DNA from: Halarcobacter sp.
Lineage (GTDB): Bacteria > Campylobacterota > Campylobacteria > Campylobacterales > Arcobacteraceae
Reading direction: 5' to 3'
Length of the DNA: 64,000 nucleotides
NCBI GenBank assembly: GCA_963676565.1
Contig: OY781089.1
Span: forward strand, 3,008,001 to 3,072,000
The translations under genes were made by a program, and so were the position numbers. The notes under the pieces were generated by a model. The model was not told the origin of the DNA. It did no database searches and saw only the letters and a list, made by a program, of their open reading frames with translations. Positions 1,857 through 17,932 of the stretch are shown in pieces (the first letter of the stretch is position 1; each line of letters begins with the position of its first letter).

Positions 1857-3002
1857 ATGGCAGAACAGAAAGTAGCACTAATAACAGGAATCACAGGACA
1901 AGATGGTTCATATTTAGCTGAATTTCTTCTAAAAAAAGGTTATATAGTACATGGTATCAAAAGAAGATCTTCTATGTTCAACACAGATAGAATTGATCAC
2001 TTATATGAAGATCCACATGTAGAAAATAGAAACTTAGTATTACACTATGGTGATATGACTGACTCTATGAATATAACAAGAATCATCCAAGAGACTCAAC
2101 CTGATGAAATCTATAACTTAGCTGCGATGTCTCATGTTGCTGTATCTTTTGAAACTCCAGAATATGTAGCAAATGCAGATGGTACAGGAACACTAAGAAT
2201 CTTAGAAGCAGTTAGATTCTTAGGACTTGAAAAGAAAACAAAAATCTATCAAGCAAGTACATCTGAACTATATGGTAAAGTTCAAGAAACACCTCAAAGT
2301 GAAACAACTCCTTTTTATCCAAGATCACCTTATGCAGTTGCAAAGATGTATGCATATTGGATTACTGTAAACTATAGAGAAGCATATGATATGTTTGCTT
2401 GTAATGGTATTTTATTTAACCATGAGTCTCCTGTTAGAGGTGAAACATTTGTAACTAGAAAGATTACAAGAGCAGCTTCAAAGATTGCTTTAGGATTACA
2501 AGAAAAACTATATCTTGGAAACCTTGATGCAAAAAGAGACTGGGGACATGCAAAAGACTATGTTAGAATGATGTGGATGATTTTACAAGCAGAACAACCA
2601 GAAGATTGGGTTATAGCAACTGGACAAACAACTACTGTAAGAGACTTTGTGAAATTTGCCTTTGAATATGCAGGTATAAACCTAAGATTTGAAAATGAAG
2701 GTGTAGATGAAGTTGGTATAATAGATAACTTTGATGAAGCAAAAGCAAAAGAATCAGGAATCGATTTATCTCACTTAAGTATCAATCAAACAGTTGTAGG
2801 TGTAGATCCAAGATACTTTAGACCAACAGAAGTTGACTTACTTCTTGGAGATCCAAGTAAAGCAGAAAAGAAACTTGGATGGAATAGAGAATATAACTTA
2901 CAAGAGTTAGTTGATGATATGATGAAATCAGACCTTAAACTTATGACAAAAGACACTTATCTAAAAGATGGTGGTTATAAGATTATGAATTATTTTGAAT
3001 AG
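1857..3002 (+). CDS. gmd: GDP-mannose 4,6-dehydratase
   Basis: [42 protein letters not shown] motifs. Confidence 0.97.
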
Positions 3003-3014
3003 TAGTAATTAGTT

Positions 3015-3023
3015 TGCTATAAT
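3015..3023 (+). promoter_or_regulatory. Extended -10 promoter (TGcTATAAT) of the toxin-antitoxin pair
   Basis: TGCTATAAT, followed by AGGAG SD and ATG at 3042. Confidence 0.6.
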
Positions 3024-3041
3024 TGTTATCAGGAGTTAAAA

Positions 3042-3236
3042 ATGAGTTTAGATGAAATAAAAAAATTAGATGTAAAAGATAGAATCATTTTAATGAATGA
3101 AATCTGGGCTACTTTAGAAGAAGAAGATAGTAATATTGAATCTCCATCTTGGCACAAAGAAGTTTTAGAAGAAAGACTTCAAAAACTTGATAACAATAAA
3201 GCAGAATTTATCTCACTTGAAGACTTAAAAGCTTAA
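3042..3236 (+). CDS. Putative addiction-module antitoxin
   Basis: 64 aa with L...R..L...IW..L and P.W..E.LEER pattern; overlaps the downstream RelE/ParE-like gene (TAATG). Confidence 0.8.
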   Translation: MSLDEIKKLDVKDRIILMNEIWATLEEEDSNIESPSWHKEVLEERLQKLDNNKAEFISLEDLKA

Positions 3237-3559
3237 TGAATATAAAAAACATAATAGCTTTAAAAGAAGTTTCAAATGATTTGAAATTAGGCGAAGAATT
3301 TTATGAAAAACAAAATCATGGATTGGGTTCATACTTTAAAGATAGCATAATATCTGACATAGAGTCTTTATGGCTTTATGGAGGAATTCATCAAAAAGTA
3401 TTTGGTTTGTATCGATTGCTTTCTAAAAGATTTCCGTATGGAATTTATTATGTCATCAAAGATGAAACAGTTATAGTAGTAGCTATTCTTGATTTAAGAC
3501 AAAACCCTAAAAAAATTTCTTCATATTTAAATAATAGAAATACTAAAAAAGAATATTGA
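3236..3559 (+). CDS. Type II toxin, RelE/ParE family
   Basis: DL....[26 protein letters not shown] motifs. Confidence 0.8.
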
Positions 3560-3560
3560 A

Positions 3561-4610
3561 ATGAACAAAGATAGTAAAATATATATAGCAGGACACAGAG
3601 GATTAGTTGGTTCTGCTATTGTTAAAAACTTAGAATCAAAGGGTTATACAAATCTTGTATATAAAACTCATAAAGAACTAGACCTAACTTCACAAGTAGA
3701 AGTAGCTAAGTTTTTTGAAGATGAAAAACCAGAATATGTAATACTAGCAGCTGCTAAAGTTGGTGGTATAGTTGCAAACAATACATATAGAGGTGAATTT
3801 ATATATGAGAATCTTGCTATTCAAAACAATGTAATCCACCAATCATATGTAAATGGTGTAAAAAAATTATTGTTTTTAGGTAGTACTTGTATCTATCCAA
3901 AAGAAGCACCACAACCTATGCCAGAAAATTGCCTTTTAACTTCACCCTTAGAATATACAAATGAGCCATATGCAATAGCTAAAATTGCAGGTATAAAAAT
4001 GTGTGAATCATATAACTTACAATATGCTACAAACTTTATATCTGTAATGCCAACAAATCTATATGGACCAAATGACAACTTTGATTTAGAAAAATCTCAT
4101 GTGTTGCCAGCACTTATTAGAAAAATTCATTGTGCTAAGCTTTTATATGAAGGGAGAGAAGACGAAGTTGCAAAAGAGTTAGGTATTGAAAATATTGATG
4201 ATGCAAAAGAGTATTTAGAAGGTTTTGGAGTAGATGCCTCTTCAGTTGAAATTTGGGGAACAGGAAAACCAAGACGAGAGTTTTTATATAGTGAAGATAT
4301 GGCTGATGCTTGTGTATTTTTATTAGAAAATAGAGACTTTAGTGATACCTATGAAAAAGACTCAAAAGAAGTAAGAAATACCCATATCAATATTGGAACT
4401 GGTGTAGATATATCAATCAAAGAACTGGCAGAGCTTATACAAAAAATTATTGGTTTTGAAGGTGAATTAAAATTTAATATCAATAAACCAGATGGTACAA
4501 TGGTTAAATTAACTGATCCGTCTAAATTACACAGTTTAGGATGGAAACACAAAGTTGAACTTGAAGATGGTATTAAAACTATGTATGAGTGGTATTTAAA
4601 TAATAAATAA
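3561..4610 (+). CDS. fcl: GDP-L-fucose synthase
   Basis: [38 protein letters not shown] motifs. Confidence 0.96.
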
Positions 4611-4611
4611 A

Positions 4612-5073
4612 ATGTTTTTAGATAAAGAAACTTTTAGTACAATTATTGCAAATGCACCACTTATCTCTATTGATTTAATAATCAAAAATAGCGAAGATAA
4701 AGTTCTACTAGGTAAAAGAATAAACAAACCAGCAAAAAACAGTTGGTTTGTTCCTGGTGGAAGAGTTTTCAAAGATGAAAAAATAGATGATGCTTTTAAA
4801 AGAATCACACAAAATGAGATTGGTGTTGAATACAATATCAAAAGTGCTTCTTTTAAAGGTATATATCAACACTTTTATGATGACAATGTTTTTGGTGATG
4901 ATTTTTCTACCCATTATATTGTGTTAAGTTTTGAACTTAGAATTACAAATACACCTATGACAAATAATCAACATGAAAATTATAGATGGTTTGAAGAAGA
5001 TGAACTAATGAAAAGTGATGATGTATACTTTTTTGTAAAAGACTATTTTGATAAAGATAAGGGGATTAGATGA
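4612..5073 (+). CDS. gmm: GDP-mannose mannosyl hydrolase (Nudix)
   Basis: PLISIDLI, WFVPGGRV.KDE variant Nudix box, HFYDDN, THYIVL; lies between fcl and manC. Confidence 0.9.
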   Translation: MFLDKETFSTIIANAPLISIDLIIKNSEDKVLLGKRINKPAKNSWFVPGGRVFKDEKIDDAFKRITQNEIGVEYNIKSASFKGIYQHFYDDNVFGDDFSTHYIVLSFELRITNTPMTNNQHENYRWFEEDELMKSDDVYFFVKDYFDKDKGIR

Positions 5074-6440
5074 CTAATATAATACTATGTGGAGGTAGTG
5101 GAACAAGATTATGGCCAATAAGTAGAACACTTATGCCAAAACAATTTGTAAAATTGTTTGATGAAAAATCTTTATTTCAATTAACTGTTCAAAGAAATTC
5201 AAAAGTTTGTAATAGTCAATTTATAGTTTCAAATGCTGAACAATATTTTCTTTCTGTTGATCAATTAGAAGAATTAAAAAAAGAGAATAATAAATACCTT
5301 CTTGAACCTGTTGGAAGAAATACTGCCCCTGCTATTGCTTTGGCTTGTATGGAGTTAGATTCTGAGGAGATAGTATTAGTAACACCAAGTGATCATCTAA
5401 TTAAAGATGAAGAAGAGTATTCAAAAGTTTTAGAAAAAGCAAAAGAATTAGCACTTGAAGATAATCTAGTAACTTTTGGTATTACTCCAACATTTGCTGA
5501 AACTGGATTTGGATACATAGAAAGTGAAAATGAATATGATGTAAAAGCTTTCCATGAAAAACCTGACTTTGAAACAGCAACTTCGTATTTAAAAGCTGGA
5601 AACTATTATTGGAATAGTGGTATGTTTATGTTTAAAGCTGGAGTATTTTTAGAGGAATTAAAAAAATATTCTCCTGAGATATTTGATACTAGTAAAGATG
5701 CTTTAACAAACTCTTCTAAAGATGATATTACAAGAATAAAATATGATGATATGATGAAAATCCCTGAAGATAGTATCGATTATGCAGTTATGGAAAAATC
5801 TTCAAAAGTAAAAGTTGTTCCATCTAATATTAATTGGTCAGATGTAGGAAGTTTTGATTCTTTATATGAAGAACTTCCAAAAGATGAAAATGGAAATACC
5901 TTAAATAAAAATCATGTGTCAATAGATAGTAAAAACAATCTAATCTATGGAAAACAAAGAAAAATTGCAACTGTTGATATTGAAGATTGTATTATAGTTG
6001 ATACTGGAGATGCTTTACTTATATCTAAAAAGGGAAGCTCACAAAAGGTTAAAAAAGTAGTTGCAGAAGTTAGAAAAACAACAGAACTACACAATATTCA
6101 CTTAACTGGCTATAGACCATGGGGTTCATATACAGTTTTAGAAGATACTCCTGGATATAAAATCAAAAGAATTGATGTAAAACCAGGGAAAAGACTAAGC
6201 TTACAAAAACATTTCCATAGAAATGAACACTGGATTGTCGTAAGTGGAACTGCTACAGTTACAGTTGGTGAAGAAACAAAACTAGTAAGACCAAATGAAT
6301 CTATTTATATAAAAATGGGTGAATTACATAGACTAGCAAATGAAGGGAAAATTCCTGTAGTACTTATAGAAGCACAAGTTGGCGAGTATACAGGTGAAGA
6401 TGATATCGTAAGAATTGATGATGATTTTAAAAGGGATTAA
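5070..6440 (+). CDS. manC: Mannose-1-phosphate guanylyltransferase / mannose-6-phosphate isomerase
   Basis: ILCGGSGTRLWP.SR, EPVGRNTAPA, C-terminal cupin RPWG...SLQKH.HR.EHW. Confidence 0.95.
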   Translation: MTNIILCGGSGTRLWPISRTLMPKQFVKLFDEKSLFQLTVQRNSKVCNSQFIVSNAEQYFLSVDQLEELKKENNKYLLEPVGRNTAPAIALACMELDSEEIVLVTPSDHLIKDEEEYSKVLEKAKELALEDNLVTFGITPTFAETGFGYIESENEYDVKAFHEKPDFETATSYLKAGNYYWNSGMFMFKAGVFLEELKKYSPEIFDTSKDALTNSSKDDITRIKYDDMMKIPEDSIDYAVMEKSSKVKVVPSNINWSDVGSFDSLYEELPKDENGNTLNKNHVSIDSKNNLIYGKQRKIATVDIEDCIIVDTGDALLISKKGSSQKVKKVVAEVRKTTELHNIHLTGYRPWGSYTVLEDTPGYKIKRIDVKPGKRLSLQKHFHRNEHWIVVSGTATVTVGEETKLVRPNESIYIKMGELHRLANEGKIPVVLIEAQVGEYTGEDDIVRIDDDFKRD

Positions 6441-7856
6441 ATGAAAACTATAAAAGAAGTTATTACTCAAAGTGATGTTAAATTTGGGACTAGTGGAGCA
6501 AGAGGTTTAGTTACTGAATTCACAACTGAAGTATGTACAGCTTTTACTATCTCTTTTTTAGATGCCATGAAAAAAAGCTTTGAGTTTAAAAAAATTGCAG
6601 TTGCAATGGATAATCGTCCAAGCAGTCCTGAAATAAGTTCTATAATTTGTGGGGCTATAAAAGCCTATGGTTATGAAGTAGATTTTTATGGAGTGATTCC
6701 TACTCCAGCATTAGCCCTACAAGCTATGGCAGATAAAATACCATCTATTATGATAACAGGAAGTCATATCCCCTTTGATAGAAATGGTATCAAGTTTTAT
6801 AGACCAGATGGTGAGATATCAAAAGATGATGAAATAGCTATTTTAAATAATACCAACCAAATAGTTGATGTCAATAGTTATTTACCAAAAGTAGAAGACA
6901 CTGCAGCAACAAATTATATTAACAGATACGCAAACTATTTTGGGGAAAACTGCTTAGATGGTCTTAAAATTGGTATTTATGAACACTCAAGTGCAGGTAG
7001 AAATTTGTATTCAAAACTTTTTACAAATTTAGGTGCAGAGGTCATTTCTCTTGGAAGATCTGATGAGTTTATACCAATAGACACAGAAGCAGTTTCAGAT
7101 GAAGATAAACAAAGAGGAAAAGACTGGTCAAAAGAATATAACTTTGATACTATTTTTTCTACAGATGGAGATGGAGATAGACCATTAATTGCTGATGAAA
7201 ATGGTGACTGGTTAAGAGGTGATATTGTTGGTTTAATGACTTCCAATATCCTTGGGGTTAAAGCTTTAGCTGTGCCTGTTAGTTGTAATACAGCTATTGA
7301 AAAAAGTGGCTTTTTTGAAAAAGTAAAAAGAACAAAAATTGGATCACCTTATGTTATAGAAGCCTTTGAAGAGTTAAATACTTACAAATCAATTGCAGGG
7401 TTTGAAGCAAATGGTGGTTTTCTATTAGGTTCAGCACTTGAACAAAATGGAACTATTTTAGATGCATTACCAACTAGGGATGCCCTGCTTCCATTTATAG
7501 TATTAGCTAGTTTTACAGTAAAAGAAAAGACAAGACTTTCTAAACTTATTGAAAATTTACCAAAACGTTTTACATCAAGTGATAGAATTCAAAATTTTCC
7601 AAGAGAAAAGAGTATTAAACTTATAAATAAAGGTGTAGAAAATCCAAATAACCTATTAGAAATGTTAGGTTTTGAAAATCTAAAAATAGTAGACATAAAT
7701 CAAATTGATGGATTGAGACTGACATTTGATAATGATGTAATCATACATCTAAGACCTTCTGGTAATGCACCAGAGTTACGTTGTTATGTAGAAACTAATA
7801 ATCAAGATACTTCAGATAAGCTAGTAAAACAAACCTTAACTTCAATTTCACAATAA
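6441..7856 (+). CDS. manB: Phosphomannomutase
   Basis: KFGTSGARG, ITGSHIP, TDGDGDRP, HLRPSGNAPE motifs. Confidence 0.93.
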   Translation: MKTIKEVITQSDVKFGTSGARGLVTEFTTEVCTAFTISFLDAMKKSFEFKKIAVAMDNRPSSPEISSIICGAIKAYGYEVDFYGVIPTPALALQAMADKIPSIMITGSHIPFDRNGIKFYRPDGEISKDDEIAILNNTNQIVDVNSYLPKVEDTAATNYINRYANYFGENCLDGLKIGIYEHSSAGRNLYSKLFTNLGAEVISLGRSDEFIPIDTEAVSDEDKQRGKDWSKEYNFDTIFSTDGDGDRPLIADENGDWLRGDIVGLMTSNILGVKALAVPVSCNTAIEKSGFFEKVKRTKIGSPYVIEAFEELNTYKSIAGFEANGGFLLGSALEQNGTILDALPTRDALLPFIVLASFTVKEKTRLSKLIENLPKRFTSSDRIQNFPREKSIKLINKGVENPNNLLEMLGFENLKIVDINQIDGLRLTFDNDVIIHLRPSGNAPELRCYVETNNQDTSDKLVKQTLTSISQ

Positions 7857-7859
7857 AAA

Positions 7860-7880
7860 AGAACCCATATTTTGGGTTCT
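7860..7880. terminator. Hairpin between convergent manB and PqqD genes (probable terminator)
   Basis: AGAACCCA-tattt-TGGGTTCT, preceded by an A-tract. Confidence 0.65.
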
Positions 7881-7886
7881 AAAGTG

Positions 7887-8159
7887 TTATGAGATAGTAA
7901 TCAAACCTTTGTTTGCTACTTCTTGAATAAAATTTAAAATATCATTTTCAACTTGTTTTTCATCCACCTCATAATTTGAGATTATCTCTTCTTTTACTTT
8001 ATTTAAATCTTTTTTTTCTTCTAAAGTTTCCCAAATAAAAGTTCCAATCTCATTTATAGAAAAATACTCATTGGTATTACTATCAAGTAAAATTGTTTCA
8101 TCATCTACTTTTTGTAAAAAAAGTGTATCTGGTATATTTATTTTTGTATCTAGTGTCAT
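7887..8159 (-). CDS. PqqD-family / RiPP recognition element (RRE) protein
   Basis: 90 aa; ETILLD...EYFSINEIGTFIWETL...Y.VDEKQVENDILNFIQE...GLI is the stand-alone PqqD/lasso-B1 pattern. Confidence 0.9.
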   Translation of the reverse strand: MTLDTKINIPDTLFLQKVDDETILLDSNTNEYFSINEIGTFIWETLEEKKDLNKVKEEIISNYEVDEKQVENDILNFIQEVANKGLITIS

Positions 8160-8162
8160 ATT

Positions 8163-9020
8163 TTATATTACCTTTTTATTTTTTATAAATTTTACAATAG
8201 CTTGATAAACCTCTTCAAGTCTATTTAAATCCCAAGGAATAGTTATATCATATATATCTACTTTATTTGCTATATTTGTCAAAGCTTTAAATCTTTGTTT
8301 TTTATGAATAGGCAAATCTATTTCTGTGGAATATCTTATAATCTTAAATTTATCAATTCCTAAAGTTTGTGAAACTTTTATTTCACATAGCGGATCAGAT
8401 TTTATTAAATTTAATATACAATTAATTGGTTTAGATTCTTCTGCAAAATTCTCTACAAATAATCCTAAATCTTCCATTTTACGATAAGGTCTATGATATG
8501 GATATGAAGGTACAGAAAAAATCATATTATCTTTTTCAAAAGTTGCTACTTTATCATCAGATATCATAGTATGACCTTTTTTTATAAAGAAATCTGTTAA
8601 GGTAGATTTTCCACCAAATGAATTTGCTACAAACAAAACTGAGGTATCTTCAATCTCCACAGCCCCGGCATGTAAGAAATAATACTTGTTTTCAAAGGTA
8701 AGTAGTATGGGGAAATAGGTATGTTTCAACCAATAGTCTACTAATTTATCTGTAGTTCCATCCGCTTTTGAGTATGTTATTAGATTAGAGTTGATTTTAC
8801 TTGAAAAAGTAACAACATCTCTAACTGTGAAACTTATTATTTGATTAGATTCTATTCTAGAGAAAGGTTTTTCACTTTGAATAAAAACTTCTCTAAGCTG
8901 ATTATTGTGAAGTTCTATCTTATAATTGAGTTTATTAGTAGAAGTTTGTTCTTCTACTAATGTGTATCTATTAGGACTCTGTTTTTTATTTATTTCTAAA
9001 TGGTATCCAAATAAATACAT
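8163..9020 (-). CDS. HPr-kinase-related kinase (lasso-peptide-kinase-like)
   Basis: LHAGAV...variant Walker A (ANSFGGKSTL)...ISDD signature of the HprK C-terminal fold. Confidence 0.8.
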   Translation of the reverse strand: MYLFGYHLEINKKQSPNRYTLVEEQTSTNKLNYKIELHNNQLREVFIQSEKPFSRIESNQIISFTVRDVVTFSSKINSNLITYSKADGTTDKLVDYWLKHTYFPILLTFENKYYFLHAGAVEIEDTSVLFVANSFGGKSTLTDFFIKKGHTMISDDKVATFEKDNMIFSVPSYPYHRPYRKMEDLGLFVENFAEESKPINCILNLIKSDPLCEIKVSQTLGIDKFKIIRYSTEIDLPIHKKQRFKALTNIANKVDIYDITIPWDLNRLEEVYQAIVKFIKNKKVI

Positions 9021-9042
9021 TAATACTTTTTACTATATGTTA

Positions 9043-9264
9043 CTAGTTAAATGAACTTCTTCTTATTCCACCTCTATCATCATTTGATGGATCAGTACCA
9101 GGTCCAGTTACTGAAGTAGAAGTATCTCTATTTACAGTATTACTTGCTGCTGCTGATGTAGGGATTGTCATTGAACCTAAAGCAACTATTGCAGGTGCTG
9201 CATATGCTGCTTTTTTTAGGAAACTTCTTCTGCTGTTTTTATTTTCTTCTACAATTTTATCCAT
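9043..9264 (-). CDS. Putative RiPP-like precursor peptide with twin-arginine signal and lasso-type leader motif
   Basis: 73 aa; SRRSFLK, YAAPAIVALGSMTIPT, SAAA|S, Ser/Thr-rich tail; GGAG SD at 9273-9276; first gene before kinase and PqqD. Confidence 0.75.
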   Translation of the reverse strand: MDKIVEENKNSRRSFLKKAAYAAPAIVALGSMTIPTSAAASNTVNRDTSTSVTGPGTDPSNDDRGGIRRSSFN

Positions 9265-9294
9265 TTTATATTCTCCAAAATTTTTTATAATGGC

Positions 9295-9303
9295 ATTATA
9301 ACA
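9295..9303 (-). promoter_or_regulatory. Extended -10 promoter (TGtTATAAT) of the peptide-kinase-PqqD operon
   Basis: Plus-strand ATTATAACA reads TGTTATAAT on the minus strand, about 30 nt upstream of the peptide ATG. Confidence 0.65.
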
Positions 9304-9365
9304 TAAAAACTTTCTAATAATATTAGAAGTTACTTAAAAAATATACAGCTACGTTATAATGTTAT

Positions 9366-9386
9366 TTTTGTAACTATTTTGTAACT
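9366..9386. promoter_or_regulatory. 11-bp-period direct repeat TTTTGTAACT (candidate OmpR-type operator)
   Basis: TTTTGTAACT at 9366 and 9377 in the divergent peptide/wza intergenic region. Confidence 0.45.
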
Positions 9387-9476
9387 TTAAAATTTTAGCT
9401 ATTTTTTAGACAGTTTTATTTGATATTTAATAACTCATTGTGTTATGATAACAAAAAAATTTATAAAAGGATGTTT

Positions 9477-10277
9477 ATGGGGTTAAAGATAAAATCTATT
9501 TTTACTTTCTCTATTCTAATTGCTTTATTCAGTGGTTGTAGTCTAAAAGATTATAAACTTTTCCAAGAAGGTAATCTAGATATTGAAGAAACTACTGTTG
9601 TTGAAAAAGAAGAATATTATCAAGAAATGGCATTTGAGAATATAATCGCTCCAAATGATAGAGTTGATGTTACAGTTTATATTCAAGCTGGTCAAGGTAG
9701 TCAACAAATGACTTCGATTCTTACTAGTAGAGATGTAAACAATAGTAATACAATTCAAGAAAACATTGGATTACTTGTTACTAGAAAAGGAAGTGTTAGA
9801 CTTCCATTACTTGGAAGTGTAAATATTGCAGGGCTAACGCAAGATGAAGCTTCTAATTATCTAATTAAAGAATACAAAAAATTTATCAGAAACCCATATG
9901 TAATCGTTGAAATCAAAAACCAAAGAGTTATCGTAATAGGTGAAGTAAAATCGCCAGGTATCGTTCCAGTTACAAATGGTACAATGAATGTAATTGAAGC
10001 TATTGCAAGGACTGGTGACTTAACAGATATGGCATCTAGAAACAATATCAAAGTTATTAGAGGTGATTTAAGAAATCCTAAAGTTAGAACTATTAACCTT
10101 ACAAGAATGGATGAATTATCTGTTTCAAGTTTATACTTAAAACCAAACGATATATTATATGTACAACCTAGAAATCTTAAAGGTTATAATAGAGCATTTA
10201 ATGATATCAACCCATTTTGGAATATGTTATCTAGTATCCTAGATCCACTAAACCAAAGAAAAACTCTTATAGAATAG
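9477..10277 (+). CDS. wza: Polysaccharide export outer-membrane lipoprotein (Wza family)
   Basis: Lipobox LFSGC; G.V.LPLLG.V...GLT Poly_export motif and SLBB domain; start placed at ATG 9477 after AAGGA SD. Confidence 0.88.
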   Translation: MGLKIKSIFTFSILIALFSGCSLKDYKLFQEGNLDIEETTVVEKEEYYQEMAFENIIAPNDRVDVTVYIQAGQGSQQMTSILTSRDVNNSNTIQENIGLLVTRKGSVRLPLLGSVNIAGLTQDEASNYLIKEYKKFIRNPYVIVEIKNQRVIVIGEVKSPGIVPVTNGTMNVIEAIARTGDLTDMASRNNIKVIRGDLRNPKVRTINLTRMDELSVSSLYLKPNDILYVQPRNLKGYNRAFNDINPFWNMLSSILDPLNQRKTLIE

Positions 10278-10294
10278 TATAAGGGTTATCATTA

Positions 10295-12652
10295 ATGGAA
10301 CAAAATAAATATATACAACATACAAATGATGAAATAGATTTAAAACAAGTATTTAAAACCATTCTTAAATACAAGTTTTTTATCTTTTTTACGATTTTAA
10401 TATTTACTATAGGTTCAGCTGTATTTGCTTATGTTAAGCCAAATATCTATTCTTCTTCTGCAACTATTGAAGTAAAAGAGGAAGAAAGAGGTTGGAACAC
10501 AAGTTCAGCACTAAAAGAAGCATTTAGTGGAACTGGAGTTAATATAGAAAATCAAATTGAAGTTTTTAAATCAAAGTTTTTAGCTGATAGAGCAGCTAGT
10601 TACTTAAATCTTGGGACAAGATATTTTACAAAAAATAACTATAGAACATATGAGTTCTATCAAAATTCTCCTTTTGTTGCTACAAAAGAGTTTATAGATG
10701 ATGAATTCTACAATAAAACTTTTTATATACAACCTTTATCAAAAGATACTTTTAAACTAATTATTAAACCTAGTAACAAATGGTCAAAGTCTGGGATTTT
10801 AGATCTATTAGGTGTTAGAAAATTTGAGGACATAGATCTTTTTAAGTATGAAAAAATCCATAAATATAATGAAGAGATAAAAACACAATGGTTTAATATA
10901 AAAATTCAAAAGATTAGTGAACTAGAAGAAAGTGAATATTCTTTTTATTTTGTTCATGAGTCTTCATTTGTAGACTACTACTATAATTTATCAATTGAGC
11001 AAGTTTCTGAATTTGCGAGTGTATTAAGACTTTCTATTTTAGATACTGTTTCAACTAGAGCAAAAGATCTTTTAAATGCTATGTTAAAGGCATATAGAGA
11101 TCAAGAAAGAGAAAGAAAAAATGAAACAGCAAACTTATCTTTAGACTTTATTGATTCTCAACTTGAAGAGATAAATAAAAGACTTAAGGCTTCAGAGGGA
11201 AAACTTGAAGAGTATAAAGAGACTAACGAAGTAATTGATTTATCACAAAAAGCAAAAATGACTTCAGAAAAATTAACTGATTATGAAAGTAAACTTCAAG
11301 AGATATCAATAGAACAAAATATCTTAAAAAATTTACAACAATATATCAATAAAAATCACAATTTATCTGGTCTAGCAGTTGGATCAATAAGCTTTGCTGA
11401 TCCTTCATTATCAAATATGGTTAAAAACTTAACCGAGTTATCAAATCAAAGAGATAACTTACTTATTGATTATACAGAGTTACACCCTGATATTGTAAAA
11501 CTTAGTCAATCAATTGCAACACTAAGAAGAAATATTAAAACTGTTTTAAGTAATAACTTAAATCAAATAGCACAAAGAAAAGCTTCTTTAGAATCTTTGA
11601 TTAGACAATATACAAAATCTTTAGAAACACTTCCTCAACAAGAAAAAGAGCTAACAAGACTTACAAGATATTTTTCTGTAAATGAAAAAGTATATTCATA
11701 TTTACTTGAAAAAAGAGCTGAAACAGCTATCTTAAAATCATCTACAATCTCTAATTCAAGAGTATTGGATGAAGCATTAAATTACCCTATTCCTGTTAAA
11801 CCAAAAAGAATGTTAATAGTTTTAGTTGGTATGATATTAGGTGGAATTGTTGGTATTGCTTACGCATTTTTAAGAGAGTTTTTAAATGATACAGTTAAAA
11901 ATACAGAGGAAATTGAAAGATATAGTTCAATTCCAATTTATGGTGTTGTTCCTCTTAATAAAAACAAAAAAACAAAAAATATCTTCCTTGAATCATTTAG
12001 GTCAATTAGAACAAACTTACAGTTCTTGCCACAAACAGAATCAAGTAGAGTTATTACAGTAACTTCTTCTGTATCAGGAGAAGGGAAAACAACTGTTGTT
12101 GCAAAAATTGCTGAAATAATAGGTCAAACAAATAAAAAGGTTGTTGTTTTAGATATAGATATGAGAAAAGCTAGTGTTCATAAAGAGTTTGATGTAGATA
12201 ATGTTATAGGATTAAGTAATTATCTAACTGGACAAAATACACTAAAAGATGTAATCTCTAAAACAGAGTCTGAAAATGTTGATTTAATTACTACAGGGCC
12301 TCTTCCTCCAAATCCTTCAGAATTGATTTTATTAGATAACATGAAAACCTTAATTGAAGATTTAAAAGAGGAATATGATTATATTATTATAGATACGCCA
12401 CCTGTTGGTCTTGTAACAGATGCACTTATTCTTATGAACTATGCAGATATTTCATTTGTATTAGTTAGAGCTGATTACACGAGAAAAGAGTTTATCAAAA
12501 ACCTTGATAGACTAGCGCGTGAACACTCACACAATCATATTGGTATGATTTTAAATGGTGTTGAAATTGGTGAAAAATATGGATACGGTTATGGTGTAAG
12601 TTATGGATATGGTTACGGAAATGACAAATATTATAAAGATAGACCTAGTTAA
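10295..12652 (+). CDS. wzc: Polysaccharide co-polymerase / BY tyrosine kinase
   Basis: DEIDL N-terminus, two TM segments, ESFRSIRTNL, Walker A GEGKT, DIDMRK, IIDTPP, C-terminal tyrosine cluster YGYGYGVSYGYGY. Confidence 0.93.
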   Translation: MEQNKYIQHTNDEIDLKQVFKTILKYKFFIFFTILIFTIGSAVFAYVKPNIYSSSATIEVKEEERGWNTSSALKEAFSGTGVNIENQIEVFKSKFLADRAASYLNLGTRYFTKNNYRTYEFYQNSPFVATKEFIDDEFYNKTFYIQPLSKDTFKLIIKPSNKWSKSGILDLLGVRKFEDIDLFKYEKIHKYNEEIKTQWFNIKIQKISELEESEYSFYFVHESSFVDYYYNLSIEQVSEFASVLRLSILDTVSTRAKDLLNAMLKAYRDQERERKNETANLSLDFIDSQLEEINKRLKASEGKLEEYKETNEVIDLSQKAKMTSEKLTDYESKLQEISIEQNILKNLQQYINKNHNLSGLAVGSISFADPSLSNMVKNLTELSNQRDNLLIDYTELHPDIVKLSQSIATLRRNIKTVLSNNLNQIAQRKASLESLIRQYTKSLETLPQQEKELTRLTRYFSVNEKVYSYLLEKRAETAILKSSTISNSRVLDEALNYPIPVKPKRMLIVLVGMILGGIVGIAYAFLREFLNDTVKNTEEIERYSSIPIYGVVPLNKNKKTKNIFLESFRSIRTNLQFLPQTESSRVITVTSSVSGEGKTTVVAKIAEIIGQTNKKVVVLDIDMRKASVHKEFDVDNVIGLSNYLTGQNTLKDVISKTESENVDLITTGPLPPNPSELILLDNMKTLIEDLKEEYDYIIIDTPPVGLVTDALILMNYADISFVLVRADYTRKEFIKNLDRLAREHSHNHIGMILNGVEIGEKYGYGYGVSYGYGYGNDKYYKDRPS

Positions 12653-12662
12653 TAGGTCTTCT

Positions 12663-13415
12663 TTATACTAACTTATAATTTTTAATTCTATTATTTTCAA
12701 ATAATTTGTGAGTTTCTTTTGCAAAAACTGCTTTGCTAAATGAATCTAAATACTTCTCTCCATGTATATCACTACCAACAAAATCAATAAGTCCATTGTC
12801 AGATAAATATTTTGCAGCAGCTTTTGGTTTTTTACCATAAAAACCAATTAAAGAATTGAGATTTATTTGAAACCTAACACCACTTTGTTTTAATTTATCA
12901 TATTTTGAGAAGTTTGATGAAAAATATGAATATCTCTCAGGATGAGCTAAAATAGGTCTATACCCTTTTGAAAGTAAATTAAAGATAGTTTGCTCTAAGC
13001 CAAAGGGTTTATTTGTATAAGAAAGTTCAAATAAAACGTATTTGTCTTTTCCAAAATATAATAAGTCATCATTTTCAATAAGTTCTAAAAAATTTTCATC
13101 AAAATAGTACTCTGCAGAAGCAATAAGTTCTATATCTATATTTCTATTTTTTAGTTCTTGTTTAAGTTTTTCACAACCATCTAGAATAATCTCTTTTGTA
13201 TTTGGAAATCTATGGGCCATAATATGTGGAGTTGTGATAATCTTATTAAATCCAAGTTTTTTTATACCTTGGATAATTTGTATTGATTCATCTAAAGTTT
13301 TTACACCATCATCAATCCCAGGGATTAGATGAGAGTGTAAATCTGTGGTATAGAATTCAGGTTTATAGTCTTTTGATTTTTTTTCAAAAATTGAACTAAA
13401 AAGTTTTTTAACCAA
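12663..13415 (-). CDS. CpsB/CapC-type PHP-family protein-tyrosine phosphatase
   Basis: DLHSHLIPGIDDG, TPH, AHPERY, GSD.H motifs; adjacent to wzc. Confidence 0.9.
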   Translation of the reverse strand: MVKKLFSSIFEKKSKDYKPEFYTTDLHSHLIPGIDDGVKTLDESIQIIQGIKKLGFNKIITTPHIMAHRFPNTKEIILDGCEKLKQELKNRNIDIELIASAEYYFDENFLELIENDDLLYFGKDKYVLFELSYTNKPFGLEQTIFNLLSKGYRPILAHPERYSYFSSNFSKYDKLKQSGVRFQINLNSLIGFYGKKPKAAAKYLSDNGLIDFVGSDIHGEKYLDSFSKAVFAKETHKLFENNRIKNYKLV

Positions 13416-13431
13416 AATTAAACCTTTATTT

Positions 13432-13459
13432 TAGAGTAATGAATTATATCATTACTCTA
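13432..13459. terminator. Hairpin immediately downstream of the adhesin gene
   Basis: TAGAGTAATGA-attata-TCATTACTCTA, 11-bp perfect stem. Confidence 0.55.
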
Positions 13460-16400
13460 TTAAATTACTGTAATATCCTGATCAATAAGAAGTTTTAAAG
13501 TTTGATTACTACTATCAGTATAAGTATATTCTTCATAACCGTCTGCTGTTGGTGTTGAATTACCCCAAATAGTTGAATCTAATGCAATTTTATCTGAACT
13601 ATCTCCATCTATTTTTAATTCATTATCATCTGAGATTGCTAAGAAGTTATCAATTGAAAGATTTGATAATATATGCATTCCATCTTCAGTTAAATCAATT
13701 GATTCTACTTTTGCACCACTAGCAGATTCTAAAATTTCTAACATATTATATAATCCTGCATCACTTGAAGAAATATCTCCTAAAGTTACTGAATTATTAG
13801 AAATTGAAACTCCTGGATTCTCTCCATTAATATCTAATGTTACTTCTTCTACATTACTTTGGTTCCCATCTGGGTCTGTTACTAGTACATTAAATTTTGC
13901 TGTTATACTTTCACCTAAATCTAATCCATCTACTTCTTCTGAGTATACATACAAGTCACCCTTTTGCGCTCCAAATTTTGTTACTAAATCTGCAAAGTCA
14001 CCATCTAAATCTGCTTGTGTTAATTGAATTACACCATTTGTTGTTGAACTTGTTATATCTCCTGTTTCATCTGCAAAGCTTGAACTATCTCTTACTAATG
14101 ACAATCCAAATTCACTATCCTCTGCATCTTCTACTCCTAACATTGCTAGTAATGCTGATGCTGATATTACTGTCTCATAGTTTGACACTGGTCCATAATC
14201 TGCAAATGATGTCTCATTTATTGTGATTGTTGGTGCTACTGTGATTACTGGTGCTTCATCTACTCCATTAATATCTAATGTTACTTCTTCTACATTACTT
14301 TGGTTTCCATCTGGGTCTGTTACTAGTACATTAAATTTTGCTGTTATACTTTCACCTAAATTTAATCCATCTACTTCTTCTGAGTATACATACAAGTCAC
14401 CCTTTTGCGCTCCAAATTTTGTTACTAAATCTGCAAAGTCACCATCTAAATCTGCTTGTGTTAATTGAATTACACCATTTGTTGTTGAACTTGTTATATC
14501 TCCTGTTTCATCTGCAAAGCTTGAACTATCTCTTACTAATGACAATCCAAATTCACTATCCTCTGCATCTTCTACTCCTAACATTGCTAGTAATGCTGAT
14601 GCTGATATTACTGTCTCATAGTTTGACACTGGTCCATAATCTGCAAATGATGTCTCATTTATTGTGATTGTTGGTGCTACTGTGATTACTGGTGCTTCAT
14701 CTACTCCATTAATATCTAATGTTACTTCTTCTACATTACTTTGGTTTCCATCTGGGTCTGTTACTAGTACATTAAATTTTGCTGTTATACTTTCACCTAA
14801 ATTTAATCCATCTACTTCTTCTGAGTATACATACAAGTCACCCTTTTGCGCTCCAAATTTTGTTACTAAATCTGCAAAGTCACCATCTAAATCTGCTTGT
14901 GTTAATTGAATTACACCATTTGTTGTTGAACTTGTTATATCTCCTGTTTCATCTGCAAAGCTTGAACTATCTCTTACTAATGACAATCCAAATTCACTAT
15001 CCTCTGCATCTTCTACTCCTAACATTGCTAGTAATGCTGATGCTGATATTACTGTCTCATAGTTTGACACTGGTCCATAATCTGCAAATGATGTCTCATT
15101 TATTGTGATTGTTGGTGCTACTGTGATTACTGGTGCTTCATCTACTCCATTAATATCTAATGTTACTTCTTCTACATTACTTTGGTTTCCATCTGGGTCT
15201 GTTACTAGTACATTAAATTTTGCTGTTATACTTTCACCTAAATTTAATCCATCTACTTCTTCTGAGTATACATACAAGTCACCCTTTTGCGCTCCAAATT
15301 TTGTTACTAAATCTGCAAAGTCACCATCTAAATCTGCTTGTGTTAATTGAATTACACCATTTGTTGTTGAACTTGTTATATCTCCTGTTTCATCTGCAAA
15401 GCTTGAACTATCTCTTACTAATGACAATCCAAATTCACTATCCTCTGCATCTTCTACTCCTAACATTGCTAGTAATGCTGATGCTGATATTACTGTCTCA
15501 TAGTTTGACACTGGTCCATAATCTGCAAATGATGTCTCATTTATTGTGATTGTTGGTGCTACTGTGATTACTGGTGCTTCATCTACTCCATTAATATCTA
15601 ATGTTACTTCTTCTACATTACTTTGGTTTCCATCTGGGTCTGTTACTAGTACATTAAATTTTGCTGTTATACTTTCACCTAAATTTAATCCATCTACTTC
15701 TTCTGAGTATACATACAAGTCACCCTTTTGCGCTCCAAATTTTGTTACTAAATCTGCAAAGTCACCATCTAAATCTGCTTGTGTTAATTGAATTACACCA
15801 TTTGTTGTTGAACTTGTTATATCTCCTGTTTCATCTGCAAAGCTTGAACTATCTCTTACTAATGACAATCCAAATTCACTATCCTCTGCATCTTCTACTC
15901 CTAACATTGCTAGTAATGCTGATGCTGATATTACTGTCTCATAGTTTGACACTGGTCCATAATCTGCAAATGATGTCTCATTTATTGTGATTGTTGGTGC
16001 TACTGTGATTACTGGTGCTTCATTACCACCATTTACTGTTAATGATATAGTTGATGAATCTACTAATATACCATCTGATACTTGATAATCAAAATTTATT
16101 TCTAGTTTTTCATTTGGTGTTAATAAATTAAAATATGGACTATTTAAAGTATATGTACCATCACTTTGCACATCTATACTTAAAACATTATTTGTCTGTA
16201 AAAGATCAACATATTTTTCACTTATAACACCCTCAATAGTAAGCTTTCCTGTTGTCAAATCAATATTAACTGGAGCTAAATTATTTAAATAAGTTATTGC
16301 ATCATTTATTGTTGTTGTAGGATCTAAAAGATAGGCTTCAATCTCTTGTAACTTTTGACTATCATCAATTACTGCTGATACTAAAGGATTACTTACAAGT

Positions 16401-17932
16401 TCTAAAAAATAAGTTTTTAAAACTTGTGTAAATTCAGGGCTAGGATTGTTTAATGCAGATACAATTGACATATTTGTTGTACTTAATGAAATATTTAAAT
16501 TTCCTGCATATGAATATTCGATATCATCACCATTTACATCAGTTGCATTCCCTGCCACACTTCCTGTAAAATTGTAATCTACAATCTCTGTTCCACCAAT
16601 TGTCACATCATTTAAATCATTCTCTTCTACTATATTTGATTCTTCTGTTGAAACGGGTGCATCGTTTGAAGTAAACTTATTTTCTAAATTTTCTACTTGA
16701 ACTCTTTGAATCTCAGCCATTGTTGCAAATGGGTCTAGAGCATTAATAGATTCTTCAACTTGTACATTAATATTAGCAATACTTGATGAAATCCCTTCAA
16801 AATCTAAAGTTGGATTATCATTTGTAATTTCTCTCATAAATATTTCAATATCAGCAGAATTAGATAAATCAAATTGAGGATTATTTTGAAGAATTTGTGC
16901 TAAATAATCAAAAGCCAATAATGATGCATCTGCTTCACTTCCCCCTTCTAAATTACTAAATAAAGCTGCACTTAAATTAACTAAGTTTGCAATTTGTACA
17001 GCAACAATTTGAACTTGTGGATTTTGTTCTTGGATAGGATCATAATTTAACAAATCAATATTTGTATCCAATCCAAAAGTAGTTGCAATTAAATCTTCTG
17101 CTTCACTTTCAGTTAAACCATCTTTTACAAGCTCATGCAATAGTGTACTTAAAGGTGAAACTGTTGTTGAGCCAGTAGGAGCAGTATAGAAGCCTTCAAA
17201 TGGTAATCCAGTAGAGATATCTGTTCCACCAAAAGCTACAATTGGTCCTGCATCTAATTCAGTTTGTGTTAATCCAGTAAAACTAAAATCCCCATTTGCA
17301 TCTGTTGTAGTAGAGTTCTCACCAATGTCTAAAGAACCATTATTGTTTGCATCAATAAAAACTGTTGAACCTGCAATATATCCATCAATTAGTTTTCCTG
17401 AATATAATATAGAAGAAATACCTGTTTCGTCATTGTTTTGATTTAAATTAACAAATAAAGGAAGAAATCCATTTTGTGTAAGTTCATTGTCAATATCTAA
17501 TCTTCCTGCAAGTGTAGGAGTATTATCAAATGTTAGTTCATTATTTTGAGTTGGATTTTGAGTTCCATCACCTTGAGTAATAACTTCGCCCCCAGCAGCT
17601 GAAGCTTCAAGTGCACTTGCTAAATCAGAAATACTATAAGTATTTTCTGTATCAGTTTGAATTAATTTAATTAGATCAGAACCATCATTTGAATTAAGAA
17701 TTTCTACCATCCCTTTTAAAACTATTTTAAAAGTTTGTGCATTATCATTAAATGTTAAAGTTAAGTCTTCTCCATTATTTGTAAGTTCTGACTTATAAGA
17801 TATATCAGAAGACAATTCGATATTTATTGTCTTGCCTTTTTGGAAATCTCTTAAAATCAATTCATTAATGTCATTCTTTGACATAAGATTTTCTAAATTT
17901 ATACTTTTTTCATATTTTTCTATTGATAACAT
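13460..17932 (-). CDS. Large acidic repetitive surface protein (LapA/Bap-like, probable type I secretion substrate) with VCBS/cadherin-like Ig repeats
   Basis: 1490 aa, no Sec signal, LEASAAG at aa 108-114, DGYIAG..FID.N.NG..D.GE domain, 5x147-aa repeats, C-terminus resembling T1SS target tails (IDL...L.I.GD..D...LLIDQDI). Confidence 0.8.
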   Translation of the reverse strand: MLSIEKYEKSINLENLMSKNDINELILRDFQKGKTINIELSSDISYKSELTNNGEDLTLTFNDNAQTFKIVLKGMVEILNSNDGSDLIKLIQTDTENTYSISDLASALEASAAGGEVITQGDGTQNPTQNNELTFDNTPTLAGRLDIDNELTQNGFLPLFVNLNQNNDETGISSILYSGKLIDGYIAGSTVFIDANNNGSLDIGENSTTTDANGDFSFTGLTQTELDAGPIVAFGGTDISTGLPFEGFYTAPTGSTTVSPLSTLLHELVKDGLTESEAEDLIATTFGLDTNIDLLNYDPIQEQNPQVQIVAVQIANLVNLSAALFSNLEGGSEADASLLAFDYLAQILQNNPQFDLSNSADIEIFMREITNDNPTLDFEGISSSIANINVQVEESINALDPFATMAEIQRVQVENLENKFTSNDAPVSTEESNIVEENDLNDVTIGGTEIVDYNFTGSVAGNATDVNGDDIEYSYAGNLNISLSTTNMSIVSALNNPSPEFTQVLKTYFLELVSNPLVSAVIDDSQKLQEIEAYLLDPTTTINDAITYLNNLAPVNIDLTTGKLTIEGVISEKYVDLLQTNNVLSIDVQSDGTYTLNSPYFNLLTPNEKLEINFDYQVSDGILVDSSTISLTVNGGNEAPVITVAPTITINETSFADYGPVSNYETVISASALLAMLGVEDAEDSEFGLSLVRDSSSFADETGDITSSTTNGVIQLTQADLDGDFADLVTKFGAQKGDLYVYSEEVDGLNLGESITAKFNVLVTDPDGNQSNVEEVTLDINGVDEAPVITVAPTITINETSFADYGPVSNYETVISASALLAMLGVEDAEDSEFGLSLVRDSSSFADETGDITSSTTNGVIQLTQADLDGDFADLVTKFGAQKGDLYVYSEEVDGLNLGESITAKFNVLVTDPDGNQSNVEEVTLDINGVDEAPVITVAPTITINETSFADYGPVSNYETVISASALLAMLGVEDAEDSEFGLSLVRDSSSFADETGDITSSTTNGVIQLTQADLDGDFADLVTKFGAQKGDLYVYSEEVDGLNLGESITAKFNVLVTDPDGNQSNVEEVTLDINGVDEAPVITVAPTITINETSFADYGPVSNYETVISASALLAMLGVEDAEDSEFGLSLVRDSSSFADETGDITSSTTNGVIQLTQADLDGDFADLVTKFGAQKGDLYVYSEEVDGLNLGESITAKFNVLVTDPDGNQSNVEEVTLDINGVDEAPVITVAPTITINETSFADYGPVSNYETVISASALLAMLGVEDAEDSEFGLSLVRDSSSFADETGDITSSTTNGVIQLTQADLDGDFADLVTKFGAQKGDLYVYSEEVDGLDLGESITAKFNVLVTDPDGNQSNVEEVTLDINGENPGVSISNNSVTLGDISSSDAGLYNMLEILESASGAKVESIDLTEDGMHILSNLSIDNFLAISDDNELKIDGDSSDKIALDSTIWGNSTPTADGYEEYTYTDSSNQTLKLLIDQDITVI
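13822..16023. repeat. Five tandem 441-bp intragenic repeats
   Basis: Shadow ORFs recur exactly every 441 bp (13897, 14338, 14779, 15220, 15661); copies appear identical apart from about 2 substitutions in the leftmost copy. Confidence 0.97.

Follow-up and report, generated by a model that had tools for sequence, protein, structure and literature searches.

At positions 9043..9264 (minus strand, stop codon included) of a 64,000-nucleotide stretch of the Halarcobacter sp. contig OY781089.1, hereafter called the window, lies an open reading frame (ORF) for a peptide of 73 residues, identified by ORF listing and translation and catalogued as P0001. Its ATG start lies 8 nt downstream of a Shine-Dalgarno-like GGAG read from the letters (9273..9276, minus strand). 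The peptide gene heads a three-gene, head-to-tail operon on the minus strand. The second gene, starting 22 nt past the first, encodes an HPr-kinase-like P-loop kinase of 285 residues (8163..9020), assigned by Pfam and NCBIfam models and by identity to relatives. The third encodes a PqqD-family protein of 90 residues (7887..8159; PF05402 at 7e-18) that resembles the B1 proteins of lasso-peptide clusters, a type of recognition element (RRE) for peptides that are made on the ribosome and modified after translation (RiPPs). The operon is closed by a terminator-like hairpin with a T-run (7860..7880, minus strand); two such sites were found where 0.3 were expected. A Pfam and NCBIfam scan of the neighbours revealed no protease or transporter gene within the three-gene operon. 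Our data suggest that the ORF encodes the precursor of a leader-guided peptide-modification system related to lasso peptides, and that its leader may serve both for enzyme docking and for export by way of twin-arginine translocation (Tat).

A preliminary description of this DNA had proposed such a dual-purpose leader, and its readings of the peptide were recounted. The exact Tat consensus S-R-R-S-F-L-K that it named is present at residues 11-17, and the peptide scored 18.2 bits on the NCBIfam TAT_signal_seq model (TIGR01409), above the cut-off of 16.7. The full twin-arginine motif, SRRSFLKK (residues 11-18; 9211..9234, minus strand), was delimited with TIGR01409 and family counts, and its KK doubles as the start of a lasso-type leader motif. 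It is followed by YAAPAIVALG (residues 21-30; 9175..9204, minus strand), a predicted RRE-docking motif of the form YxxPx[ILV]xxxG that lies within the hydrophobic region of the signal and was assigned from family counts and alignment with lasso leaders. Residues Y21, P24, I26, G30 and T36 match the lasso leader consensus YxxPxLxxxGxxxxxT at each position, with I for L, so that the proposed fit holds in the window copy. The hydrophobic region (h-region), AAYAAPAIVALGSM, is rich in Ala, Gly and Pro and moderately hydrophobic, and continues into P-T-S-A-A-A. Here A-A-A (residues 38-40; 9145..9153, minus strand) forms a predicted signal peptidase I site with cleavage after A40, placed where family conservation ends at +28. 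This SAAA|S junction (residues 37-41) would release a hydrophilic core of 33 residues (41-73; 9046..9144, minus strand) that is rich in Ser, Thr, Gly, Asn and Asp, includes 11 Ser/Thr, and, as translation and family comparison indicate, is hypervariable among relatives. The site, core length and Ser/Thr count are all as first described, as is the position of the first acidic residue discussed below.

To delineate the peptide family, we performed a word-indexed search, which returned 27 homologues. R12, R13, F15, L16, K17, K18, A19, A20, Y21, P24, L29 and G30 were invariant among them, and the C-terminal halves could not be aligned. Out of 1.84 billion representative proteins, a profile built from 34 members retrieved 1071 at E ≤ 1e-3, 112 of them at ≤ 1e-10. 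The best 150 of the 1071 were all 46-141 residues long, with no large enzyme among them, and the 144 new representatives within these 150 were used for residue counts, with positions numbered from the first R. RR (0, +1), F (+3), Y (+9), P (+12) and one of I/L/V/M/F (+14) were each found in 144/144 and KK (+5, +6) in 143/144, values that are partly circular, as both the profile search and the regular-expression selections favour motif-bearing sequences. As leader-selecting searches share this property, the kinase was also used as an anchor (see below). Conservation extended through G at +18 (123/144), P at +23 (108/144), A at +26 (97/144) and A at +28 (100/144). From +29 onwards no residue dominated, and the cores of these 144 representatives were 7-96 residues long, with G, S, T and N abundant. 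Cleavage by signal peptidase I predicts conservation that breaks off exactly at P(-6), A(-3) and A(-1); docking alone makes no such prediction. Both motifs occur together in the homologues retrieved, with RR, Y+9 and P+12 present in every listed representative.

These comparisons also bear on whether the ORF is real. It lacks a match to any Pfam model, as a spurious, untranslated frame might, yet it is conserved as a reading frame in different families and phyla, its leader diverges in synonymous fashion while the core diverges freely, and an SD-like site precedes it. From this pattern we consider the ORF to be probably translated and a spurious frame scarcely credible.

Within the cores, Ser occurred among positions 1-3 in 94 of the 144 representatives, against approximately 24% expected; the equivalent residue of the window peptide is S41. 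An aromatic residue was present in the last 8 positions of 96/143 family members. Two further features of the window copy did not extend to the family. The threonine corresponding to lasso T(-2) is present as T36, but T occupies +24 in only 28/144 of the listed representatives. Likewise, the RRS(S)F word that recurs at the C-terminus is shared with the nearest relatives P0002, P0003 and P0005 and is confined to them; it was dropped as a family feature and as a functional repeat. At some loci (L019, L020, L024 and L025) the RR-leader precursor genes number two or three, and their long cores (80-120 residues) end in aromatic-rich tails.

Anchoring on the kinase, we found matches in 11/151 genomes of the family. 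All eight non-self, full-length kinase loci (8/8) had an RR/Y..P peptide directly upstream; beyond these eight there were one locus cut by a contig end and three distant paralogues in a single genome (G115). Extending the search to the class gave matches in 15/401 genomes and 17 new loci, of which 8 contained an RR peptide, 7 were genuine lasso clusters and 2 were neither. Two of these 8 RR peptides have W in place of Y, one of them shifted by one residue. The window kinase was 32-47% identical to its Campylobacterota relatives, including 38-47% for six of the seven copies in lasso clusters and 37% for the copy at L041. A pattern scan of genome contigs added 12 loci from Sulfuricurvum, Sulfurovum, Sulfurimonadaceae, Aliarcobacter, two gammaproteobacterial metagenome-assembled genomes (MAGs) and one contig labelled Paenisporosarcina. 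Most of the 12 carry the kinase, and several also have PqqD and a nucleotidyltransferase of the NTP_transf_5 family.

Grouping the loci by gene context revealed two arrangements. In the first, wza/wzc adjoin one or more peptide genes followed by kinase, PqqD and, in some cases, the nucleotidyltransferase (16 RR-peptide loci; L008 and L018 have peptide ORFs that read alike, and counting them as one gives 15). In the second, found in Sulfurovum-type genomes, genes for a LamG protein and a lipoprotein precede peptide and kinase. The Paenisporosarcina-labelled contig (L021; JBFELW010000378.1; 2.9 kb) carries an RR peptide with the Sulfurovum-type LamG protein and lipoprotein, and its label may be a binning error.

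The survey addresses a further possibility, that the peptide is an ordinary small Tat-secreted protein with no relation to the adjacent kinase and PqqD. Small Tat targets do exist in the genome, such as a TAT target-like ORF in the formate-dehydrogenase region (L003). However, the peptide and kinase are adjacent in 8/8 kinase-anchored family loci, in 8 more class loci and in the two gammaproteobacterial MAGs. The leader is also far more conserved than the mature part, the reverse of ordinary secreted proteins, and among the 28 RR-leader ORF candidates of the genome only the window peptide has Y+9 and P+12, which the other 27 lack. We regard an unrelated Tat protein as quite unlikely.

Relatives in lasso clusters place the leader in a broader setting. 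In one genome (G432), genes for an RR peptide and a kinase of its own are found immediately upstream of a lasso cluster that is complete (L050, G432:C1:352000-371500, 7558-14565). This cluster has the order D-B2-K-C-A-B1, confirmed by Pfam as ABC (ATP-binding cassette) exporter, B2 (PF13471), second kinase, cyclase (PF00733), 43-residue precursor and PqqD. As this PqqD is the only one in that genome, it presumably serves both peptide types. The lasso leader there reads KK-E-Y-A-Q-P-K-L-I-V-M-G-S-M, compared with KK-A-A-Y-A-A-P-A-I-V-A-L-G-S-M in the window peptide. Indeed, all five lasso precursors found in Campylobacterota (5/5) have KK one or two residues ahead of Y/W, followed by x-x-P-x-[LIM], and RRxFL is absent from all five. 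The KK of the Tat consensus would therefore also begin the docking motif, and RRxFL would be an addition that docking does not need.

Similarity to lasso systems was also found at the other end of the peptides. The lasso precursor at L052 (10919-11095, minus strand) ends in P-S-D-P-G-G-W, the same tail as Sulfurovum-type RR cores, and the form P-S-D-P-x-G-W is common to this precursor and to RR peptides including that at L056:6900-7076 (plus strand). The L052 kinase is sister to an RR-type kinase (support 100/100), and the kinase may read this tail. Over the whole kinase tree, RR-type and lasso-type sequences interleave with 8 label changes, at least 5 of which are forced by starred branches, and no rooted direction is implied. 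The automatic "RR" label on this tree reflects a window of -2.5 to +3.5 kb around the kinase, so that a few rows (e.g. L023_5521) are loosely labelled.

Could the window peptide itself be a lasso precursor? The leader consensus fits at each position, the PqqD is B1-like, and related kinases reside in lasso clusters. Nevertheless, Transglut_core3 (B2, PF13471) had no match in the genome, which is 99.97% complete, and its four Asn-synthase-like genes are all outside the window, the nearest approximately 190 kb away, with 24-28% identity. With cleavage after T36-S37, as in lasso precursors, no acidic residue would come before the D at position 10, while a lasso macrolactam needs Asp or Glu at 7-9, and T(-2) is sparse across the family. 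The absent B2, the remote Asn-synthase-like genes and the position of the acidic residue ruled out a lasso product, for which we see hardly any chance. The link to lasso systems is real; the window product is not a lasso peptide.

The PqqD protein points to the same kinship. It scored 56 bits on the lasso_PqqD_Bac model, under the cut-off of 80; lasso B1 models were nearest, all below their cut-offs. Searching its profile against solved structures ranked TbiB1 first (E 1.4e-18); the next three matches were also lasso or PqqD-family chaperones. We predicted the complex that PqqD, entered as a 14-row alignment, would form with residues 1-42 of the leader, entered as a 34-row alignment. The prediction scored 0.53 against 0.00 for the best of 3 controls, with runs agreeing on at least 92% of contacts and a partner pLDDT (predicted local distance difference test) of at least 57. 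The mark for a pass was reached by 116/157 solved complexes and 2/215 mismatched pairs, and scores of 0.60 or below comprised 18 of the 157 solved complexes and both mismatches that passed. As TbiB1 has already been solved with its leader, the pass may show likeness only.

The machinery for export was also examined. The genome encodes TatC (241 bits) and a single Peptidase_S26 gene (signal peptidase I; 139.8 bits) located 1.4 Mb from the operon. Its own RR-leader proteins carry words such as SRRDFLKK and QRRSFIKK. Neither the kinase nor PqqD has a signal sequence, so modification must precede export, which suits a post-translational pathway. The literature describes Tat as tolerating small unfolded substrates without exposed hydrophobic stretches (PMC13673990). 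It also describes redox enzyme maturation proteins (REMPs), chaperones that bind Tat signal peptides as platforms (PMC13673990), among them NapD, whose epitope overlaps the RR motif (PMC3712460).

An alternative is that RR-x-F-L-K-K is only a docking or kinase-recognition tag, and that the peptide is no Tat substrate, staying in the cytoplasm or leaving through another exporter. RR, F and KK show the same invariance as Y and P, which an enzyme-recognition tag would lead one to expect; in G432 the genes for RR peptide and kinase are followed by one for an ABC exporter; and both linear polyphosphorylated peptides (LPP, described below) and lasso systems export by pumps. Several observations oppose this. 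Lasso precursors of the same phylum, presumably read by the same kind of RRE, have no RRxFL, and in G432 a single PqqD is available to the two peptide types. P(-6), A(-3) and A(-1), with the stop in conservation, fit signal peptidase I; the window operon contains no transporter or protease gene; and the motif is the one that Tat substrates of this genome carry. On balance, a recognition tag without Tat export appears rather improbable.

Export and cleavage might also proceed as proposed but through the general secretory (Sec) pathway. A hydrophobic stretch with an A-x-A site fits Sec too, and RiPP precursors with Sec signal peptides, the bufferins, have been published (PMC12452194). The charge distribution is likewise compatible with Sec, as the window copy has no basic residue in its c-region. 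In comparison, S-R-R-x-F-L-K is fully kept across the family and the TIGR01409 cut-off is exceeded, cytoplasmic, ATP-dependent modification ahead of export fits a post-translational route, and the Ala/Gly/Pro-rich h-region is only moderately hydrophobic. We consider Sec export unlikely.

Taken together, the invariant motifs, the stop in conservation at A-x-A, the lasso-B1-type PqqD, the lack of a protease or transporter in the operon, and the presence of TatC with a distant signal peptidase support a single leader that directs both docking and Tat export, signal peptidase taking the place of a protease and pump of the system's own. This proposal of the preliminary description passed every comparative test run. 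With a probability of roughly 0.6, we propose that the ORF encodes the precursor peptide of a lasso-free operon for leader-guided peptide modification, a Gram-negative cousin of LPP in which the leader acts as docking tag and Tat signal at once and the RRE docking motif lies inside the Tat signal.

A plausible sequence of events follows from this proposal. As the homologous RREs of lasso (B1) and LPP systems suggest, the PqqD-type RRE would grip Y21-x-x-P24-x-I26 in the cytoplasm and present the peptide to the HPr-kinase-like enzyme, which would phosphorylate a Ser of the core. Our best guess for the target, by analogy with Ser3 of LPP, is the Ser-rich first residues past the cut site. The detached NTP_transf_5 enzyme may then add to the phosphate, as in pseudomycoidin. 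The modified, unstructured and hydrophilic peptide would be exported by TatABC by means of SRRSFLKK, the hydrophobic stretch and P-x-x-A-x-A, and the housekeeping signal peptidase I would release it after A40. TatABC and signal peptidase I would thus do the work for which LPP and lasso clusters have a leader peptidase and an ABC pump of their own.

Some of our results weigh against this reading. In addition to the partial circularity of the family counts, the match of the kinase to HPr kinases is weak: it scored 26.6 bits on PF07475, under the cut-off of 33.3, and its matches among solved structures were weak HPr kinase hits (best E 1.3e-3) that included no lasso-kinase structure. Given this weakness, its activity is extrapolated from relatives. 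The NTP_transf_5 gene stands apart from the operon and has no canonical start codon, as detailed below. The predicted PqqD-leader complex, which does pass its mark, passes it weakly. The RR peptide of G432 lies beside an ABC exporter gene, and a pump could serve there. Finally, the c-region of the window peptide lacks a basic residue, with K/R at +19..+26 in only 54/144 relatives, and the invariance of RR could serve docking and not Tat.

A more elaborate model is that PqqD acts as a Tat proofreading chaperone, an RRE working as a REMP, so that only modified peptide is exported and then acts with Wza/Wzc in the periplasm. PqqD covering the hydrophobic region of Y-x-x-P would shield the signal from TatBC until the kinase, with or without the nucleotidyltransferase, has finished. 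The released phospho- or phosphoglycosyl-peptide would be an exopolysaccharide primer, anchor or regulator. We offer this as a tentative possibility. If true, it would constitute the first Tat-dependent RiPP class, with a role in building the envelope and not as an antibiotic.

The closest published relative is the LPP system of Paenibacillus alginolyticus (lppA-K-B-S-D-N; Popov et al., Nat Commun 2026, PMC13381572), which is defined in Bacillota and called restricted to that phylum. As its text describes, LPP precursors span 35-200 residues; their leader, YxxPxVLxHQxIxFETxxS, is conserved, whereas their C-termini vary. The system includes an RRE, an HprK-like kinase and a nucleoside triphosphate (NTP) transferase, and Ser3 is polyphosphorylated. 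The clusters occur in capsule loci, often beside paeninodin-type lasso clusters. The window system resembles LPP in having no cyclase, in its YxxP leader with a hypervariable C-terminus, in the discrete lasso-like RRE and HprK-like kinase beside the precursor, in its polysaccharide locus and co-occurrence with kinase-bearing lasso clusters, and, by prediction, in leader removal by an enzyme of signal-peptidase type.

The differences from LPP, again judged against the text of that paper, concern export and hosts. LPP has a dedicated SipW-like, archaeal-type signal peptidase I (LppS) and an MsbA-like pump (LppD), and the window operon has neither. The LPP leader has no twin-arginine signal, whereas the docking motif of the window leader lies inside a predicted Tat signal with an A-x-A site. 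The NTP transferase belongs to the LPP cluster; the only PF14907 gene of the window genome lies 6.2 kb away with ATA at the expected start, and in six related loci its counterpart adjoins PqqD. Hosts of LPP are Bacillota; those of the window type are Campylobacterota and some Gammaproteobacteria. The terms "Tat", "twin-arginine", "Gram-negative" and "Proteobacteria" do not occur in the text of PMC13381572, although its supplements may list matches outside Bacillota. A lasso-free kinase/RRE peptide class has already been published as LPP. The evidence supports an LPP-like, lasso-derived system with export probably delegated to Tat and signal peptidase I.

Phosphorylated lasso peptides offer a second comparison. 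For paeninodin and pseudomycoidin, lasso precursors receive from HPr-kinase homologues a phosphate that a nucleotidyltransferase glycosylates (PMC8498205). Shared with the window system are an HPr-kinase homologue for a linear precursor, a PqqD-like B1 and a nucleotidyltransferase (PMC8498205), and homologous Campylobacterota kinases include the copies in D-B2-K-C-A-B1 clusters. In contrast, the window system has no cyclase or B2 and would thus form no lariat. The window peptide also ends in N, so its target Ser is not C-terminal, and its leader has RRxFLKK.

The kinase can also be set beside the TIGR04352 (HprK-related kinase A) cassette, which we take to be what is named the HPr-rel-A system. 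Common to both are an HprK-like kinase, a PqqD-like protein and a nucleotidyltransferase in polysaccharide or exosortase neighbourhoods. The window kinase scored 24.4 bits on TIGR04352 against a cut-off of 200 and so is no member by the NCBI threshold. Its relatives scored 19-85 bits overall, with 84.6 bits for the gammaproteobacterial relative in L028.

Two other precedents concern the leader. Bufferins (PMC12452194) and DAG-RiPPs (PMC13056109), made with multinuclear non-heme iron oxidative (MNIO) enzymes, are described as having Sec or lipoprotein signal peptides on their precursors. There, as proposed for the window, general secretion and signal peptidase replace a leader protease and exporter, and modification comes first, in the cytoplasm. 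These precursors use Sec with signal peptidase I or II, unlike the lasso-type docking motif in a Tat signal predicted here. DUF2282 precursors are reported to have a signal peptide without an RRE recognition motif (PMC12710340), and the text of a 2026 paper holds lasso-type leaders to be probably incompatible with N-terminal signal peptides (PMC13056109). In REMP systems (NapD-NapA, TorD, DmsD), a cytoplasmic protein binds the Tat signal itself during cargo maturation (PMC3712460, PMC13673990), with overlapping transport and chaperone epitopes as we envisage for PqqD. They differ in having unrelated folds and inserting cofactors into large redox enzymes, compared with a PqqD/RRE protein and probable peptide phosphorylation in the window system. 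Our literature search, supplements excluded, found no Tat-signal RiPP leader.

As a rule, the leader of a RiPP and a secretion signal are distinct elements, and here a lasso-type docking motif would be written within a Tat signal. If the proposal holds, the LPP class would extend from Bacillota to Gram-negatives, through a family comprising about a thousand sequence clusters or more, and Tat with the housekeeping signal peptidase could stand in for a dedicated protease and pump. It would also supply a substrate for a kinase/PqqD/nucleotidyltransferase cassette, so far uncharacterised, that polysaccharide loci repeatedly contain. The pattern RRxFLKK-x-x-Y-x-x-P provides a search rule for further members, and point mutants in RR versus Y/P should make export and modification separable.

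The genes around the operon are those of a polysaccharide locus. Divergent from the peptide gene are a wza-like exporter gene (9420-10277, plus strand) and a wzc tyrosine autokinase gene (10295-12652, plus strand), both assigned by Pfam and NCBIfam, with a CpsB-type phosphatase gene downstream of wzc. The conserved adjacency to wza/wzc suggests that the product is tied to exopolysaccharide or the cell envelope.

The only NTP_transf_5 gene of the genome (537..1679, minus strand; PF14907 at 2.7e-43) lies 6.2 kb from the operon. Its frame is open for 390 codons and matched PF14907 profile positions 4-248 in the whole-genome search. Where homologues have their ATG, the aligned codon is ATA (1677-1679), the first ATG is at 1454, and the first 75 codons (1454-1679) contain no ATG, GTG or TTG; either the start has been lost or ATA is a rare start. 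On the other strand between this gene and the operon lies a GDP-mannose/GDP-fucose cassette assigned by Pfam (gmd, fcl-like epimerase, NUDIX, manC and manB; 1857-7856, plus strand). As the nucleotidyltransferase gene directly follows PqqD in L008, L011, L018, L019, L025 and L036, the sugar cassette looks like an insertion into the peptide cassette.

Between gmd and fcl (3042-3559, plus strand) are a gene for a 64-residue Unstab_antitox protein (PF09720) and an overlapping ORF of 107 residues without a Pfam match, a pair that may be an addiction module within the sugar operon. The second PqqD of the genome (G000:C1:101228-104413, L032) belongs to a pqqB-C-D-E operon for pyrroloquinoline quinone synthesis and is unrelated. 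Farther along the window, 13460-17932 (minus strand) encodes a protein of 1490 residues with five near-identical tandem repeats of approximately 147 residues (441 nt) and a weak bMG6 match only, and phantom ORFs recur on its antisense strand with the period of the repeats.

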